Shown here piece by piece: positions 31,262 to 51,362 of a DNA stretch of 64,000 nucleotides. The stretch's first letter is position 1. The number at the start of each line of letters is the position of its first letter. The stretch comes from Escherichia coli. Its GTDB lineage: Bacteria; Pseudomonadota; Gammaproteobacteria; Enterobacterales; Enterobacteriaceae. Location: NCBI RefSeq assembly GCF_041248615.1, contig NZ_CP158426.1; one strand, given 5' to 3'. The notes under the pieces are model-generated. The model worked only from the letters and a program-made list of their open reading frames with translations, was not told the DNA's origin and made no database searches. The position numbers were made by a program, and so were the translations under genes.

Positions 31262-31606
31262 TTACCATTTCGGCGGAGTCTTCAGAGAACCAGTAATTCT
31301 TCCCGGTAGCTTTCCTTTGTAGGTTATCCACACATTCTGCGCCTCTAAAATTATGGGGCGCTTTTCCGGCGACTGCTCATCCCCTTCACATAACCCGGCA
31401 GCACCATCCAGGAAGAACTGTCTAATGCTCCTTCTCGCTGCTGCCTCATAAAACTCCAACGCGGCACCTTCAACACGGTCCAGCGAGATGTCCAGGTCAA
31501 AAATTTCACCGTCAAAGCGTTTTTTGTCCCGTAAGGCTACAGTTACCGCCACTTTATTCTCAAAATTGCGGACTCCTTTCACAACCAGTTCATAGTCTTG
31601 TGTCAT
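31262..31606 (-). CDS. hypothetical protein between holin and endolysin
   Basis: ORF in the S-R interval; no recognised motif; start uncertain. Confidence 0.4.
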   Translation of the reverse strand: MTQDYELVVKGVRNFENKVAVTVALRDKKRFDGEIFDLDISLDRVEGAALEFYEAAARRSIRQFFLDGAAGLCEGDEQSPEKRPIILEAQNVWITYKGKLPGRITGSLKTPPKW

Positions 31607-31610
31607 TGGA

Positions 31611-31826
31611 TTACTCTCTTCTCGCAACCTTACGCCTGTCTTCTTTAATCTTGAAATAAAGGTTTGTCAGATACGTCAGCAGGCCAAAAACCAGACTACC
31701 CAGCACACCGATTGCAGCCCACTGTGACGGAGTTACTTTATCGAGTAACTGCAATGCCCAGAAACCAGCATTACCAGCCGATGTGCCATAGGCGATACCT
31801 GTTGTTAACTTATCCATTGATTTCAT
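31611..31826 (-). CDS. S: pinholin (phage 21 S-like class II holin, dual-start MKSM)
   Basis: 71 aa, [28 protein letters not shown]... close to S21 including the Met1/Met4 dual start. Confidence 0.85.
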
Positions 31827-32044
31827 ATCCTCACCCCGATGTACACAGATGGTGCAATATGTTTGAAAAGATCGGAGTCTATGGGTTAGTTTTTATAGCA
31901 AACGTTGTTCTCAACGGCGCTAAAAAACAGACACATTAAAAATGTGGGTAATTATTTTAAAAGAAAATCATATATTAAATAATAATACGAGATATGTTTT
32001 CATATTTAGTGTACTGTATACGGCCATTTATACAGGAAAAGCCT

Positions 32045-32215
32045 ATGTCAGAACGTAAAGACTCAAAATCACGCCGTAATTATCTCGTTAAATGTTCCTG
32101 CCCAAACTGCACCCAAGAGTCAGAACACAGTTTTTCAAGAGTACAAAAAGGTGCCCTTTTGATCTGCCCTCATTGCAACAAAGTATTCCAGACAAATCTT
32201 AAAGCTGTAGCTTGA
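32045..32215 (+). CDS. small zinc-ribbon protein (CxxC ... CxxC)
   Basis: AGGA SD before ATG; CPNC and CPHC pairs. Confidence 0.35.
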   Translation: MSERKDSKSRRNYLVKCSCPNCTQESEHSFSRVQKGALLICPHCNKVFQTNLKAVA

Positions 32216-32277
32216 TTGATTTTATTCGTAACAAGTATTTTTTATATTTTAATAACATATTTAAAGCAGATAATAAA

Positions 32278-32300
32278 AAACCCGCCTGAGCGGGTTTAAT
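32278..32300. terminator. hairpin flanked by A and T runs (possible bidirectional terminator)
   Basis: AAAAAACCCGCCTGAGCGGGTTTAAT. Confidence 0.4.
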
Positions 32301-32578
32301 ATTGTGGTGCTTTTTGTGGGAGTCATCCACTTACGCACTTTGTTTTGCTATGCTAGCAGTTAGCTTCTGCTGTAAAACTATTCATGCAGCAAACCTGCAC
32401 TTCACCACAATGGTTAGCATACTTTTCCTGATTAAGTTATTGCCAAATATGCTGGCCATTGTTTCATGTATTGGATCTCCTTACTATTTATTAAAGAGAT
32501 CCAATATTCACCACTCTGTCTGTATCTCCACTCAGGCATCAGCCTTCTTCGTTATCGTATACAGACAAACTATTAATT

Positions 32579-32794
32579 TTAATCAGTAATTATGACATTT
32601 GCTGCTGCAGGACCTTTAGCACCACTCTCTACAGAGAAGGTAACCTTTTGACCTTCAAATAAGGTTCGATAATTATCATTCTGAATCGCAGAAAAATGCA
32701 CAAACACATCTTTACTACCATCAACAGGAGAAATAAAGCCAAAACCTTTATCAGCGTTAAACCATTTTACTAAACCAGTCATTTTATTTGACAT
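32579..32794 (-). CDS. cold shock protein (CspB-like)
   Basis: [21 protein letters not shown]... canonical CspA-family sequence. Confidence 0.8.
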
Positions 32795-33093
32795 TCTACA
32801 TTCCTTAACTTGAGCCTTTCGGCATAAATGGCTTGTATAACAGAAACGACTTCGTACTTAATTGGAGAGACTCAAAGAAGGAATAAGTGAATAACACCTG
32901 AAATGAGAACTGCTTTAGTAAACTACTTCGTATATCGTCTGTTCTTCAAACCGACGCAATCATTAACGCATAGTTGAACATATGAAGCAATGTTTATTTT
33001 AGACATCCAGCCATCTTCAACCCCATCAAAAAACTATAGCTTTCTTCAGGAACGTGTGTATAGTGCGCCAAGTTATCAGTATTAAGGAATTTT

Positions 33094-33306
33094 TTGTCCC
33101 GTAAAATGACAGGAATTCTCAAAACCTTTGACGGCAAAAGCGGCAAAGGTCTTATAACCCCATCCGATGGTCGTATCGATGTCCAGCTTCATGTTTCAGC
33201 GCTCAATCTCCGCGATGCAGAAGAAATTACCACCGGATTACGCGTGGAATTTTGCCGGATAAATGGTCTGCGTGGACCATCAGCTGCCAATGTTTACCTT
33301 TCATGA
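33094..33306 (+). CDS. cold shock protein paralog (CspF/CspH-like)
   Basis: [26 protein letters not shown]... CspF/H-like. Confidence 0.75.
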
Positions 33307-33598
33307 GCTATATTAAAGCTTTAACTTCAAGCCCCATCGAATCAAACATGGAGAGTTTTCATGAATAAACCCGTCTGTCTTGATGACTGGTTGATTGGCT
33401 TTAAAAGCTTATGCTGTACTTTGACCTTAATAGCTCTGCTAATAATGTAATAAGCAGACTCATTGTATCTATGGACATTGTACTGGAAGAAAACATTTTA
33501 AACATCAGGCAAAAAACAAAGTCACCCGATAAATAATAAGTAAACTAACATGAATCCCGTAATGAGATTCAACATCTCTATTACCCTATTTAAAGCAC

Positions 33599-36469: not shown

Positions 36470-36865
36470 TTACCGAGTTGCTAATTTGCAACTCGCTTTT
36501 TCGTACTTACTGATAGTGATCTCGACCTTCCCCTCCGGGATAACCGGTCCCCACTCCACCAGCATTCTTTTCACCTGACTGTCGTCTTCCCACACACCCG
36601 CGTGGGTCAGGGCGTCAAACAGCGCCTTGTTATAGTTGTCCAGATCGCGGATCCGGTTATCCGGAGGAAACAACACGATCTCCACTGAAGCAGGTGCCGA
36701 CGTTGGTTTCGGCAGACGACGTAACTGCTCAACTATTGCTGCGCACGCCGCGCTCTGGAATTTGCGCCCCGCTGCGCTTATCAGACTCTTACCAGCAAAC
36801 GCCCCTTTGTTGGGGTGTCGCCAGTACGTGTTCACGCTGGGCGGGAAAGGCAGGATCAGCTTCAT
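36470..36865 (-). CDS. rusA: RusA-family Holliday junction resolvase
   Basis: RDLDNYNKALFDALTHAGVWEDDSQV matches the RusA catalytic core. Confidence 0.8.
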   Translation of the reverse strand: MKLILPFPPSVNTYWRHPNKGAFAGKSLISAAGRKFQSAACAAIVEQLRRLPKPTSAPASVEIVLFPPDNRIRDLDNYNKALFDALTHAGVWEDDSQVKRMLVEWGPVIPEGKVEITISKYEKASCKLATR

Positions 36866-37188
36866 ACTTTCAGGCCCCTCTCATGTAACCAGTGGGCTGC
36901 ACGCAGCCTGCCGTTTTCCTCACCGGCAAGCAGTGCGCGGATAATCCCGACCGCCTCGCTGTCGTCGTCCTTCACCGCGGTATGAAGCGTTATCCCCCGG
37001 GCCACGCCACGCTTTATCGTGATGACGCCTTTTTTCTCCAGTGCACGAAGATGCTCTACCGCTGCATTCACTGAACGGTATCCCAGCATGGTTGCCACCT
37101 CCTGATTGGTTGGCGGAAAGCCACGCTCTTTCTGGTAAGAAATCAGCATATCCAGCACCTGCTGCTGGCATTGAGTTAACGTCGTCAT
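36862..37188 (-). CDS. LexA N-terminal DNA-binding-domain homolog lacking the S24 peptidase domain
   Basis: MTTLTQCQQQVLDMLISYQKERGFPPTNQEVATMLGYRSVNAAVEHLRALEKKGVI aligns closely with E. coli LexA residues 1-70; ORF ends after about 108 aa. Confidence 0.6.
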   Translation of the reverse strand: MTTLTQCQQQVLDMLISYQKERGFPPTNQEVATMLGYRSVNAAVEHLRALEKKGVITIKRGVARGITLHTAVKDDDSEAVGIIRALLAGEENGRLRAAHWLHERGLKV

Positions 37189-37676
37189 TACGCCCCCACG
37201 TAATTCCCTGACAGATACCACTCATCACTCGATACAGCGCGCTTGCTGCTTTTCCGTAAACACTGCTCACGACGCGCCAGAAAATTGTTTCGTTCTGGCT
37301 GGGAGTGGCTTTCACGGAATGCCGCCATCCACACCGTTGCAGCACGACGGTATAAGCCCCTTGACTCCAGTTCTTCAGCCTGGCGGGTCAGGCACAAAAT
37401 CACCCGGGGATCGTTAGTGCCGACATAGAAATTGCGCACAGGTCTGGTTTCACGAACTGGTTGTGGTTCCGGCTCCTGCGCTCTCTCAGTCAGGCGCGGG
37501 AAATGTCTGCGTGTATCTCCTTCACAACGGTGAGCCACACGCCCACTCTGACGTAACTTGCTTGCTGACTGCAGAACGCGCTGCCGTGAGTAACCTGCAA
37601 AAGCATCCGCAATGTCTCCGGAAGTACACCCCGGATGGGCTTCAATGAATTTCTGAACTTCATTCAAAAGACTCAT
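37188..37676 (-). CDS. PerC/ANR-family transcriptional regulator-like protein
   Basis: C-terminal half (ELESRGLYRRAATVWMAAF...RREQCLRK) resembles PerC; N-terminal half is winged-helix-like. Confidence 0.45.
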   Translation of the reverse strand: MSLLNEVQKFIEAHPGCTSGDIADAFAGYSRQRVLQSASKLRQSGRVAHRCEGDTRRHFPRLTERAQEPEPQPVRETRPVRNFYVGTNDPRVILCLTRQAEELESRGLYRRAATVWMAAFRESHSQPERNNFLARREQCLRKSSKRAVSSDEWYLSGNYVGA

Positions 37677-37678
37677 AA

Positions 37679-38620
37679 TCACCCCCTGAATCCTGCCGGG
37701 ATCTGGCTGTAGTCCACGTTGTCGTAACTGGCTTTGAAGTACGGGTCTTCACGTTTTTCTGTGTGCGTGCTGACGGACGGCGATAAGCGCAGGGAAAGCT
37801 CATCCCATTTTTCCCGCAACTTCGACGGGCTGAGCACGTTACGGCACCAGAACGGATCGCGGCTGACGCGGCTGTACATCTCGCAGATTTGTTTGTGAGT
37901 ACGACCATCCTGCACACACATCAGGCGAATTTCGTTTGCCCAGGCTGTCCAGTTAGGTTCTTTGGGACGAACCACCTCGCCGTCACATTCGGCGGCCTGC
38001 TCGTACAGGGCGATGATTTTTTTCCAGAGCCACTGTGCGCAGGTCAAATCATCCTGCGTTCCCCACTGGCGCTTTTTAGGGCTGAATACAACCGCATCAG
38101 GATGGCGAGTTAAAAAATCCTGTTCATCCATCTGCGTGTCCGGTTGCGAAGCGTCCGGACGAGAAGGTTTTTTATCTGATGGATCATGTTTTGATTTTAC
38201 TGACGGATCCCCGCCAGATTCTGACGGGTGAAAACCCGCTTTTTTGCCAGATTTCGACGCATCAAATTTTGACGGGTCAGATTTTGATGCGTCAGATTTT
38301 GACGGGTCAGAATCTGACAGTTGAGAAAATGCCGCTGCCTGAAGCTTCGCAACGTTAAGCTGATAAACATTCGACGCATTGCGGTTACCCTGGCGACGCG
38401 CCTTACGCGTTAACCAGCCTTCTGCTTCCAGCCGTGCGATAGCCGTTCTGACGGTACTCATCCCCGCGCCAATCTGACGGGCAATGGTTTCAATTGATGG
38501 CCAGCACACACCTTCGTCATTACTGAAATCAGCCAGGCGGGCCATAATTGCCACGCTGGATAACTTCATGCCTGATGCAGCGCAACCATCCCATACATAG
38601 CCGGTTAATTTAGTGCTCAT
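37679..38620 (-). CDS. phage replication initiation protein (replisome-organiser N-domain, DnaT-like C-terminus)
   Basis: N-terminal wHTH (CWPSIETIARQIGAGMSTVRTAIARLEAEGWL); repeat-encoded linker; C-terminus YDNVDYSQIPAGFRG mirrors the DnaT C-terminus [13 protein letters not shown] at 60180-60204. Confidence 0.6.
   Translation of the reverse strand: MSTKLTGYVWDGCAASGMKLSSVAIMARLADFSNDEGVCWPSIETIARQIGAGMSTVRTAIARLEAEGWLTRKARRQGNRNASNVYQLNVAKLQAAAFSQLSDSDPSKSDASKSDPSKFDASKSGKKAGFHPSESGGDPSVKSKHDPSDKKPSRPDASQPDTQMDEQDFLTRHPDAVVFSPKKRQWGTQDDLTCAQWLWKKIIALYEQAAECDGEVVRPKEPNWTAWANEIRLMCVQDGRTHKQICEMYSRVSRDPFWCRNVLSPSKLREKWDELSLRLSPSVSTHTEKREDPYFKASYDNVDYSQIPAGFRG
38185..38330. repeat. iteron-like direct repeats inside the replication gene (putative ori)
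   Basis: About five copies of (C/T)AGAT(T/C)(T/C)TGACGGGT spaced at roughly 18-20 bp, with an adjacent A+T-rich stretch. Confidence 0.5.
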
Positions 38621-47878: not shown

Positions 47879-50011
47879 TCAATCTTTAAGACTAATTGTG
47901 ATTGCATCTGGAAATCCAATTTGGCTATAGCACATAGTTTCGGTTATGAATAATTTTCTATCGATAAAATCAAGTACATCTTTTTTCGTGAGCCCCGTTA
48001 ACATCGTCAATTTGTTAATTACATAATCATACCAATCATGGTGAAGCATGTTTATATACATGTTAATATCAACTGCATCTTTCTTCCATGAATTATTCGG
48101 TATCAAATCTTCAGATAAAAATCCTCTTATTAAATCGCTTGCATAGGACATCCTAAGAAAAACAGAAAGAAAAAGCCTTACATTAACATGTGTAAAATTT
48201 GTAGATAGCGTCGAAGGAAACTCGTAAAACCGGTAGATCAACCGACTTACAAAAACAGCAGAGTCTATCGCATTTACAGGCAGTAATGTTCCGATGACAC
48301 TTAATGCACCACTTATAACGAAGCCATTAGCAACAGAGGCATGAGAACCACTTAGGGCAGATGTTAAACATGCACTCAGAATTACGATAGGAGGAATTCT
48401 TGCTATTTTTCTCAAACTCCAAGTGTCCACTTTATCCTCACCTATTATTAACCATCCATGACTCCCATTGCCATCATGGTTTCCATGACAATCCATAACA
48501 AGAATATGACCTTGATATTGATTTAGAGCATCAATAAACTCAGCTTTCGATCTAACATCAATAATCTCGCAATCAAGATCTGGCATCTGTTTTTTAAATA
48601 TCTCAATTGCGTTCTCTAATATGAACTTTAAGTGATCATCAGGCTCAAAAGAACGTATAACTAAAACCTTTCTCAACTCAGATGCTTTTACTAAAACGCG
48701 CGGAAAAGCAGAGGCGCTCTGTAGAAGAACGTTACCAGGCGTAGCATTTATTCTTGATATCTCATGACTGAACATTATAGGTATGTTATTAAACCTAATC
48801 CAATCCAATGGTACATCACAAACAAAGGACAAATCGCTATAGTTTTTACTTATATATGTTCTCAACTTGCAACCAAGGGCTCTTCGAATAACAGTATTGA
48901 ATGCTTTAGATTTAGTGATGAATGCTTCACTATTTATCCCAGAAGAAGTTGCAAGATCTTCAAGATTTTTCAAATAATTGGAGTAATGATTTATTGCATT
49001 TGGCAATCTTATTGCTGGGATTTTTTTATTTATGCTAAATAAAGTAATCGCAGCTGTTGTTAATCGCATTTCAGCGCGTCTTAGTGAGGTGAGGTAACGG
49101 AAAGCAGGACTTTTAAAAAGTTCTTTTCTATCTGAATTTATATCAAGTCTAATTCCAGAATAGCCTGGATTCCTCAACACTCCATCAATAAGGAATTTTT
49201 TCTCAATTGTGGATAAATTTTCCGTTATTAACTCATAAAAGTCATTATTTTTATCATATAAAAAAGAGTGCATACCCGGAGCAAAAAGTAAGACTTCCGT
49301 TGGAAGTGGTATATCTAATTCCTTTAAACATTCGGTGTATGCATCAACGCTATGAAGTATTATTTCTATAAACTCTCTTTTGCTACTACCATCTTTAATT
49401 CTTTTTGGTGGAGATAGCATATAGCCAAGTGATTCAATTAACAACTCATTGGGTAGTGTTGAATTGTTAAGCGTCGATCTCCAAGGTGATTTATTAAATA
49501 AAGCCCCTCTTCGCTTCAACTTCGTTGATATTTTCTTTTCACTGTGATTTTTTCTTATTTTATCCTCAATGAATTTCAACCGAGAGAAGAGCACCTTATC
49601 AAATGAGTATATACTATTAATCTTATTAAGTGGTAGATCAGCGCGTTTAGAATTGCAACAAATTATAGGTGGTATAGCAAAATGTTTTTTTAAAGCACAA
49701 ACATACGAAAAATCTTCTTTAGCACAAAAAATTAAGCAAAATGGCGTTTGATAAATATTTGGTATTTTTTCAAGATTTTCTTTAGATATTAAAAAAATAG
49801 GATTTAGCCCGCTTAGAGTAGGCTGAAAGTTATCATTTTCACTGACAAAAATCTCACTAATTTCTTTTGGTGTTTTGGCCAATAAAAAAAGAATGTTGGA
49901 TATCTCTGGGTTGAGGAGGCCAGTATCGAAACCTTGGATTATGGTTTGTTCCCCAGTAGTAGGCATGATTACAACTTTAAGTATCGCCCCGTGTTCCTGT
50001 AACAGTTCCAT
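47879..50011 (-). CDS. CHAT-domain (caspase-like cysteine protease) protein with an uncharacterised N-terminal region
   Basis: C-terminal GHILVMDCHGNHDG ... PPIVILSACLTSALSGSHASVANGFVISGALSVIG has the His-Gly / Ser-Ala-Cys catalytic signature of CHAT peptidases; AGGA SD before MELLQ; strongly AT-rich. Confidence 0.6.
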   Translation of the reverse strand: MELLQEHGAILKVVIMPTTGEQTIIQGFDTGLLNPEISNILFLLAKTPKEISEIFVSENDNFQPTLSGLNPIFLISKENLEKIPNIYQTPFCLIFCAKEDFSYVCALKKHFAIPPIICCNSKRADLPLNKINSIYSFDKVLFSRLKFIEDKIRKNHSEKKISTKLKRRGALFNKSPWRSTLNNSTLPNELLIESLGYMLSPPKRIKDGSSKREFIEIILHSVDAYTECLKELDIPLPTEVLLFAPGMHSFLYDKNNDFYELITENLSTIEKKFLIDGVLRNPGYSGIRLDINSDRKELFKSPAFRYLTSLRRAEMRLTTAAITLFSINKKIPAIRLPNAINHYSNYLKNLEDLATSSGINSEAFITKSKAFNTVIRRALGCKLRTYISKNYSDLSFVCDVPLDWIRFNNIPIMFSHEISRINATPGNVLLQSASAFPRVLVKASELRKVLVIRSFEPDDHLKFILENAIEIFKKQMPDLDCEIIDVRSKAEFIDALNQYQGHILVMDCHGNHDGNGSHGWLIIGEDKVDTWSLRKIARIPPIVILSACLTSALSGSHASVANGFVISGALSVIGTLLPVNAIDSAVFVSRLIYRFYEFPSTLSTNFTHVNVRLFLSVFLRMSYASDLIRGFLSEDLIPNNSWKKDAVDINMYINMLHHDWYDYVINKLTMLTGLTKKDVLDFIDRKLFITETMCYSQIGFPDAITISLKD

Positions 50012-50144
50012 CAAAAATCCTAATAAACAAATAAGAATGTTATAATCAAAAACTGCAAGGATTAGCAAGCAATTCTTACAGTTTTAAGAAGGGGATTATA
50101 CCGCAATATGCATAATTGCGTTCTGCCTATGCAAAATGTCAGTT

Positions 50145-51362
50145 CTAGTCTGAACAAGTACAAGTAACTATCGATTCAACTCTCTCCCACCATGCCTGGT
50201 AAGCTTTACGCTGTTCATCTAAATAATCGCTCTTGTCATAAACCTGCCATACCCCTGGCAGTTTATGACCGAGCATTATTTCTGCAATATGAGGTGCAGT
50301 AAGATCAGAAAAGTTTGTTCGTGCTGTTCGTCTCAAATCATGAAGAGACCAATGAGGGAATTGATACCCCAAACGCCGCCATGCGTACTGCATTAAATTG
50401 TAAGGCAGCGACTGCAATGATGTCCGGCCAACGGGTTCCCTGCTTCCTTCCTTAGTAAAAAGCATATCGGAACCATTGTTCATAGAGATAACGTACTTTA
50501 TAAGCTCTTCAACCGGTTCAATAATGGGGCGCTTTAGCGGTTCGCCTGTTATATCCCCTGTCTTATGTCGTTCTGGCGGTACAGTCCATACCTTATTAAT
50601 GAAATCAAAATCATTCACCCTAGCGGTAATTAGCTCTGAACTACGGCAGCCAAAATGCAGCAATAGTTTAATGAAGGCCCGGTATTTAGGAACCATTCGA
50701 GAACCATCGATCGCAGCATAAAGGATTTTAATTTCATCATGTGTCAGAAACCGTTTCTTCTGACCTTTACGGATATCCATATCTTTACCCGTGATATCCG
50801 ACAGCGGGCGAGTTTCAATGAGCTTTCTCTTATACGCCCAGACATGGGCCTGCTTTGCGTTAATTAGCAATCGGTCTGCTATTGCTGGAGTCTTAGTGCT
50901 AAGAGGCTCCAGGACTTCTAACCAATCATGCAATGTAGCTGCATCGTGAGGGATATTCCCGATTTTAGAGAACAGGTGCAGCTCAAACGAGCGGAGTATC
51001 TGTTCAGAACCTTTTTTATTTTTTACACAATATGCTTCATACCAGGCACGGATCACAGACTCTACCGTCATGGCTTCAGTAGCTTTTCGTTTTTCAGCCT
51101 GCTTGACTAATCGTGGATTGCGGTTTGACTCGAGTTCACCACGGAGACGGATAACTTCTTCTCTGGCCTCTTTTAATCCAGTTGCCGGGTAAGTTCCGAT
51201 ATCAAGGCGCTCACCTTTCCCTGCCCATTGATAACGATATTGGAACACTACGCGACCTTTCGGTGATACTCTGACAGACAGACCATCACGATCGGATTTA
51301 ACCAAAACCTTATCACGTTCCTTTCCAACGACTGAACGCAACCACGCATCAGACAGCGCCAT
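50145..51362 (-). CDS. tyrosine recombinase / phage integrase (P4-type)
   Basis: 405 aa; N-terminal DGLSVRVSPKGRVVFQYRY; C-terminal HDLRRTART ... LGH ... Y catalytic pattern. Confidence 0.85.
   Translation of the reverse strand: MALSDAWLRSVVGKERDKVLVKSDRDGLSVRVSPKGRVVFQYRYQWAGKGERLDIGTYPATGLKEAREEVIRLRGELESNRNPRLVKQAEKRKATEAMTVESVIRAWYEAYCVKNKKGSEQILRSFELHLFSKIGNIPHDAATLHDWLEVLEPLSTKTPAIADRLLINAKQAHVWAYKRKLIETRPLSDITGKDMDIRKGQKKRFLTHDEIKILYAAIDGSRMVPKYRAFIKLLLHFGCRSSELITARVNDFDFINKVWTVPPERHKTGDITGEPLKRPIIEPVEELIKYVISMNNGSDMLFTKEGSREPVGRTSLQSLPYNLMQYAWRRLGYQFPHWSLHDLRRTARTNFSDLTAPHIAEIMLGHKLPGVWQVYDKSDYLDEQRKAYQAWWERVESIVTCTCSD

Follow-up and report, generated by a model that had tools for sequence, protein, structure and literature searches.

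The PerC-family gene yfdN lies directly behind the replication initiator in a lambdoid Escherichia coli prophage and in most diverged lineages

PerC, encoded on the pEAF plasmid of enteropathogenic Escherichia coli (EPEC), and PchA, PchB and PchC, encoded on prophages of enterohemorrhagic E. coli (EHEC), activate ler/LEE1 (LEE, locus of enterocyte effacement), while PchD has no effect and that of PchE is less than 2-fold; over-expressed PchE represses csgD and curli. The pch genes are located in prophages or prophage-like elements (PMC5931665, PMC6265319), and Pch disrupts nucleoprotein complexes of H-NS, 88% of the Pch-bound regions lying in H-NS-bound regions (PMC4764244). The PerC-like proteins of the phage-inducible chromosomal islands (PICIs) of EDL933 and CFT073 showed no effect on LEE1, and EcCIMP1_025, whose similarity to ANR (AraC negative regulator) proteins was noted by its authors, represses it (PMC11773190). 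ANR proteins are described as acting by protein-protein contacts with AggR and H-NS (PMC10148876). Here we consider yfdN, a gene sharing the module core of PerC and PchA/B/C, in a 64,000-nucleotide stretch of E. coli DNA (RefSeq assembly GCF_041248615.1, contig NZ_CP158426.1; hereafter the window), where it occupies positions 37188..37682 of the minus strand, stop codon included, directly behind the replication initiator gene of a prophage.

The open reading frame (ORF) flagged in an earlier note on this DNA is yfdN, an early-operon gene of a lambdoid E. coli prophage of the SfII/SfIV/SfV/CPS-53 type. A copy with 100% DNA identity, on the chromosome of E. coli NRZ14408, is named 'yfdN: PerC family transcriptional regulator' by the Prokaryotic Genome Annotation Pipeline (PGAP). 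The surrounding 3.3 kb show 97-98% identity to Shigella phages SfIV and SfII as well as to a number of E. coli phages; in the annotations of these phages the names 'PerC family transcriptional regulator' and 'putative protein YfdN' occur. The YfdN of the K-12 prophage CPS-53 (KpLE1), gp42 of SfIV, orf40 of SfV and the 'PerC transcriptional activator family protein' of SfII are the same gene as that of the window (96-100% identity, equal length, equal neighbors and equal RefSeq annotation). Of 5,426 complete E. coli genomes, 2,667 contain related DNA, in most cases 95-99% identical and under the RefSeq label 'PerC family transcriptional regulator', and the protein clusters carry this name or that of 'CPS-53 (KpLE1) prophage protein'. 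The assignment to the PerC family is therefore already known from public annotation and from the literature: Uhlich et al. (2018) called yfdN 'the K12 unique PerC homologue', and an MG1655 delta-yfdN strain was used in that study solely as a clean background (PMC5931665).

Conservation of the gene was examined in 172 loci with a YfdN-like ORF, gathered from genomes, metagenomes and IMG/VR. A search started from an E. coli-centered alignment retrieved only 97-99% identical loci, and an alignment of a distant group was used for the diverged ones; the resulting proteins fell into 18 clusters at 80% identity and reached down to ~25% identity to the window protein. The reading frame, delimited from the ORF list, PGAP, PHROG 1324 and the conserved MSL start, counts 164 amino acids (aa) from a GTG codon. 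The true start is probably the ATG at 37676, with a product of 162 aa beginning MSL, because MSL and MSI open 88 and 54 of the 172 proteins, respectively, a pattern held down to 25% identity, a GGGGG Shine-Dalgarno sequence precedes this ATG, and SfV orf40 is annotated with a length of 162 aa.

The earlier note had proposed that the C-terminal half of the product resembles activators of the PerC/Pch type, and the PerC-family profile search that it had put forward indeed returned this family: residues 100-154 matched Pfam PerC (PF06069) with a score of 39.3 bits (E 7.8e-10), the gathering cut-off being 22.6 bits, and all 36 of the diverged homologs searched matched it as well. PHROG 1324 ('transcriptional activator') matched the full-length protein (E 4.5e-78), and two plasmid-borne PerC-family proteins were recovered by BLASTP at 37-38% identity over ~60 residues (E 1e-9). 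The first ~60 residues of these short proteins align to YfdN residues 96-155, and the core motif AEELE-x-(R/K)G(L/F)(W/Y)RRAA-x-W is common to YfdN and to the N-terminus of short PerC-family proteins. Among 54 distinct E. coli-type alleles the ratio of nonsynonymous to synonymous polymorphism per site (pN/pS) was 0.12 overall and ~0.09 in each domain, so that both domains are under purifying selection. The PHROG match, the occurrence of related DNA in nearly half of the complete genomes and this low pN/pS indicate together that yfdN is not a chance ORF.

YfdN consists of a winged helix placed ahead of a PerC/ANR-type helical module. The AlphaFold2 model, built from 36 homologs, reached a mean predicted local distance difference test (pLDDT) of 84.5 and a predicted template-modeling score (pTM) of 0.46. 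The N-terminal winged helix (aa 5-62; 37497..37670, minus strand), made of three helices and a beta hairpin, was modeled with pLDDT 91-95, the values being above 90 for aa 11-60. Foldseek aligned this domain to winged helices of ArsR/SmtB, MarR, DsrD and Hop2 with a root-mean-square deviation of 1.4-3 Å over ~60 residues (probability 1.0, E 2e-3 to 0.1), and Pfam winged-helix matches occurred sporadically among the homologs. A disordered linker of ~30 residues (aa 63-91) leads to the C-terminal module (37221..37409, minus strand), recognized by Pfam PerC, by the NCBIfam ANR model and in the structure model, in which its three helices (aa 92-107, 111-124 and 128-145) coincide with the Pfam match; its signature in YfdN reads AEELE-x-RGLYRRAATVW. 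The protein ends in a tail (37191..37220, minus strand) that is disordered (pLDDT ~60) and conserved in the alignment of homologs as (W/C)-x-L-(A/S)-G-(N/R)-(Y/F)-x-G, with G163 nearly invariant; its pN/pS of 0.39 indicates a weaker constraint than on either domain. A sequence search of the PDB matched no chain even at E<=10, and Foldseek against PDB and BFVD gave only generic winged helices for the N-terminal domain; neither the C-terminal module nor the protein as a whole yielded anything informative.

The comparison with the described relatives is one of a common module in different contexts. PerC and PchA/B/C, all encoded on mobile elements, have the same module core, but they are single-domain proteins of ~90-105 aa, whereas YfdN, with 162-164 aa, adds the N-terminal winged helix and the linker, lacks the C-terminal extension of PerC/Pch and sits in a replication cassette. 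The ANR family (Aar, Rnr; NCBIfam NF033650) likewise provides a small helical module with detectable similarity, its members being, unlike YfdN, very small and single-domain (the NCBIfam model has 54 positions). This model was matched by 24 of the 36 homologs at E<=0.01, with a best E of 4e-9, while the window protein, at 22.5 bits, did not reach the curated threshold of 32; judged from these profile scores, the relationship appears at the superfamily level only.

The genomic position of the gene was highly uniform. On the minus strand the genes follow each other in the order cro-like, YmfL/CII-like, DUF4222, O-like initiator, yfdN, LexA-DNA-binding-only, RusA, KilA-N, DUF968 and Q, with a cI-like repressor ahead of the cro-like gene on the opposite strand; the placement of yfdN in the early region, also advanced in the earlier note, thus held, the gene belonging to the rightward early operon between the initiator and the LexA-like to Q genes. 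The initiator (313 aa; 37679..38620, minus strand; Pfam HTH_36, PHROG 391 with E 1.5e-135) combines an N-terminal HTH_36 winged helix with a C-terminal domain homologous to lambda-type O, and its TGA stop overlaps the yfdN GTG and lies 2 nt ahead of the yfdN ATG. In 168 of the 172 loci an ORF on the same strand stopped at most a few nucleotides away from the start of the yfdN-like gene; the two frames overlapped by 4 nt in 75 loci and were separated by 2 nt in 83. This upstream gene was an initiator with HTH_36 and/or Phg_2220_C in 16 of the 18 clusters; as for the two exceptions, one has RecT upstream and no initiator nearby, and the other is cut by a contig end.

Downstream of yfdN a different regularity was found. 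A DNA methyltransferase gene follows directly in 15 of the 18 clusters, usually with overlapping stop and start codons (loci L003, L007, L008, L010, L011, L013, L098, L103, L109, L111, L114, L116, L160, L168 and L170), and the enzymes belong to four unrelated Pfam families, namely Dam (PF05869), D12 (PF02086), MT-A70 (PF05063) and C5 (PF00145) fusions; among them are a C5 domain fused to D12 and one D12 fused to a phosphoadenosine phosphosulfate (PAPS)-reductase domain. That such different enzymes recur in the same tightly joined place could suggest that YfdN controls or targets the methyltransferase usually encoded next. A Dam methylase gene indeed follows yfdN in SfII, SfV and many prophages, but it is absent from the window and from SfIV, where it was lost or never present, and both nonetheless keep an intact and constrained yfdN, 97-100% identical to alleles that have a methyltransferase behind them. 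Methyltransferases are also found in this region of phages that carry P, and the dam gene of SfV has its own annotated promoter, so that we regard control of the methyltransferase as highly improbable.

The fixed place of yfdN directly behind a phage replication initiator also disfavors a dedicated role in virulence control. The earlier note had suggested that YfdN might act as PerC and Pch do, i.e., as a trans-activator of H-NS-silenced virulence loci of the host or of islands. YfdN does share its Pfam family with PerC and PchABC, and the AEELE-RGLW/YRRAA-W core is common to it and to the short PerC-family proteins. Nevertheless, activation does not follow from membership even within the family: of the members tested, only PerC and PchA/B/C activate ler/LEE1, considering the behavior toward ler of PchD and PchE and the absence of effect, or the repression, of LEE1 with the PICI proteins; moreover, commensal and K-12 strains commonly carry yfdN, and its architecture and genomic slot are unlike those of Pch. 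A Pch-like activator is consequently an improbable reading: the gene was correctly recognized in the earlier note, and the functional suggestion attached to it was over-extended.

The association with the initiator extends into the initiator gene itself. When the window was compared with a locus whose initiator has an unrelated body, DNA homology ran from ~76 nt before the initiator stop to exactly the yfdN stop, which places the mosaic junction inside the initiator gene and not at a gene boundary. The portion concerned comprises the last ~25 codons of the initiator (37682..37756, minus strand), EDPYFKASYDNVDYSQIPAGFRG, defined by DNA homology to this locus with a different initiator body. Orf39 of SfV shares only this tail with the window initiator, and the tail (…NVDYSQIPAGFRG) is common to initiators with three unrelated C-terminal bodies (loci L088, L007 and L181). 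Given the two limits of the homology, the initiator tail and yfdN recombine as a single unit. At the protein level, YfdN-associated initiators all have the ending ...(N/D)VDYSxIPxGFR(G/S), irrespective of their remaining sequence, unlike the O proteins paired with P, which end in ...NTDWIxGV.... The Arg, Phe and Gly codons of the IPxGFR motif vary synonymously, which indicates that the peptide itself is constrained, in addition to any constraint from the Shine-Dalgarno sequence of yfdN. Hybrids of a comparable kind were the basis of the classical case for an interaction between the C-terminus of lambda O and P.

Residues 166-277 of the window initiator showed 39% identity (E 1e-17) to the C-terminal domain of O of H-19B and many Shiga toxin (Stx) phages. 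The gene overlapping the end of O is P in H-19B, in Klebsiella phage ST16-OXA48phi5.1, in phage PHB10 and in Edwardsiella phage GF-2 (Pfam Phage_lambda_P, PF06992, was confirmed for two of the four), and no YfdN-like ORF was found in the O-P loci of these four phages. YfdN therefore has the genomic slot of lambda P, directly downstream of, and overlapping with, an O-type gene with a homologous C-terminal domain. On this basis, YfdN could be the partner of the initiator in the replication module, occupying the lambda-P slot of a cassette without P and helping to recruit or load the host DnaB or to assemble the origin complex, and the C-terminal IPxGFRG tail of the initiator may serve as its docking peptide. 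The adjoining ORF in nearly all loci and its identity as an initiator in 16 of 18 lineages are in agreement with such a role, together with the mosaic unit and with a tail motif conserved as protein and different from that of P-paired O proteins. No helicase or loader was annotated in the early regions of SfIV and of a 100% identical E. coli prophage, yet the title of the SfIV paper calls SfIV an isolated phage.

The same comparison also yields arguments in the opposite direction. YfdN has 162 aa as compared to ~230 in lambda P and shares no sequence or profile similarity with it; hhalign of the YfdN family against a lambda-type P (that of H-19B) gave a probability of 0.1%, i.e., no relationship, and searches of Pfam, PHROGs and NCBIfam matched no loader family. 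A fused AlphaFold2 model, joining the last 148 aa of the initiator to YfdN through a 30-aa glycine-serine (GS) linker, reached a pTM of 0.27; the pLDDT of each tail was below 50, with neither ordering nor predicted docking, a weak negative given the shallow alignment (24 paired rows) and pTM and pLDDT as the only readouts. The lineage with the gene after RecT has no initiator nearby, adjacency alone could yield the co-segregation of the tail with yfdN, and the initiator tail could itself recruit host DnaB-DnaC without YfdN. Our literature searches found no paper tying PerC-family proteins to replication. On balance, a replication partner of the initiator is a possible but rather doubtful identity for YfdN.

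We tentatively favor, at somewhat less than even chances, a regulatory reading in which YfdN, a two-domain protein expressed early, binds DNA or serves as an adaptor; its PerC/ANR module would contact a nucleoid or regulatory protein, and it would act mainly on the early/replication region of the phage. YfdN would most likely act when the early operon is expressed, its winged helix binding DNA and its PerC/ANR module contacting a protein partner. The class of this partner is suggested by the relatives, since the target is nucleoid or regulatory in every characterized one (H-NS complexes for Pch, H-NS and AraC-type activators for ANR). In such a scheme the early/replication region of the phage itself would be the place where YfdN modulates transcription or nucleoprotein structure, and any effect on host genes would be a by-product. 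In an interactome prediction for E. coli, YfdN falls into a cluster labeled 'negative regulation of transcription'.

Several considerations weigh against this regulatory reading. The literature on YfdN consists of screens and lists, that is, an over-expression screen for glycogen and an expression table of the nitric oxide response in uropathogenic E. coli (UPEC). DNA binding by the modeled winged helix is an assumption, as winged helices also mediate protein contacts. PerC-family members vary among activators, repressors and proteins of no effect, so that function is not transferable from the domain. Finally, a role in replication would account at least as well for how strictly the gene is coupled to the initiator and for the co-segregation of the initiator tail.

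Similar cassettes were also noted elsewhere. The Stx2c-converting phages of O157 (Stx2c_JNE130578, L182 2527-3084) combine an initiator that has the same tail with a YfdN-like ORF (hidden Markov model E ~1e-54). In Vibrio phage K72 (L180 2105-4182) an O-like initiator, an overlapping gene for a 143-aa protein, a small ORF and a DNA methyltransferase gene are laid out like the YfdN cassette; the 143-aa protein was considered as a YfdN homolog but showed no detectable homology (hhalign probability 3.6%).

As regards the neighboring genes, yfdN is co-transcribed and translationally coupled with the initiator gene on its upstream side and with the LexA-like and RusA genes behind it. Between 36470 and 38620 the minus strand showed neither a promoter-like nor a terminator-like site. 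The ATG of the LexA-like gene (36862..37188, minus strand, PGAP coordinates; Pfam LexA_DNA_bind, E 3.7e-19) overlaps the yfdN stop in the sequence TAATG. Its 108-aa product consists of the LexA DNA-binding domain without the S24 peptidase domain, and its position is kept in SfIV, SfV and distant relatives; it could be a non-cleavable mimic of LexA acting on SOS boxes. The RusA Holliday-junction resolvase (36470..36865, minus strand; Pfam RusA, E 6.4e-15) is encoded by the next gene of this tightly coupled operon.

A candidate origin was recognized within the initiator gene. Tandem Repeats Finder, together with inspection of sequence and composition, revealed 4.3 copies of an iteron-like 15-bp repeat at 38248..38311, the unit being CAGATTTTGACGGGT on the plus strand, within the part of the O-like gene that codes for the linker, and an A-rich stretch adjoins them at ~38165-38200. 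The lambda ori sits inside gene O, and by analogy with it the repeats and the A-rich stretch are probably the replication origin.

Other parts of the prophage were of composite character. A copy of IS1 interrupts the leftward early region, and the IS256-like IS1414 lies at the left end of the prophage (~43239-43742 and 46485-47693, respectively, positions derived by offset from the annotated identical locus); IS1414 is adjoined by the gene for a 729-aa CHAT-domain protein and by a 405-aa ORF (47879-51362), a locus that may represent a defense island. No integrase was annotated to the left of the early region in the stretch examined, which ends inside the CHAT gene, and the prophage may therefore be defective. 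The region from Q to lysis of the annotated identical locus (L001 4228-8263, corresponding to window ~29400-33450) contains cspB, cspF, ynfU, essQ, rrrQ and a ydfR-family gene; late cargo resembling that of the Qin prophage is thus joined to an early region of SfII/CPS-53 type, which makes the prophage a mosaic.

For the interpretation of the many genomes in which this gene is annotated, the name 'PerC family transcriptional regulator' is not to be equated with 'virulence activator', since the architecture of this subfamily differs and the tested members other than Pch behave differently. A bolder proposal, which we consider unlikely, takes YfdN-type proteins for functional equivalents of lambda P in widespread enterobacterial lambdoid modules devoid of P, where, as cofactors coupled in translation to the initiator, they would act together with its conserved IPxGFRG tail in recruiting the host helicase or building the origin complex. 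If this were true, the PerC/ANR fold, known only from the regulation of virulence genes, would gain a primary role in the replication of mobile-element DNA. The coupling in the lambda-P slot offers a concrete and cheap hypothesis for helicase loading in the P-less phages of Shigella and E. coli, including serotype-converting and Stx2c phages, and would also provide a function for a domain family that occurs on phages, PICIs and plasmids.

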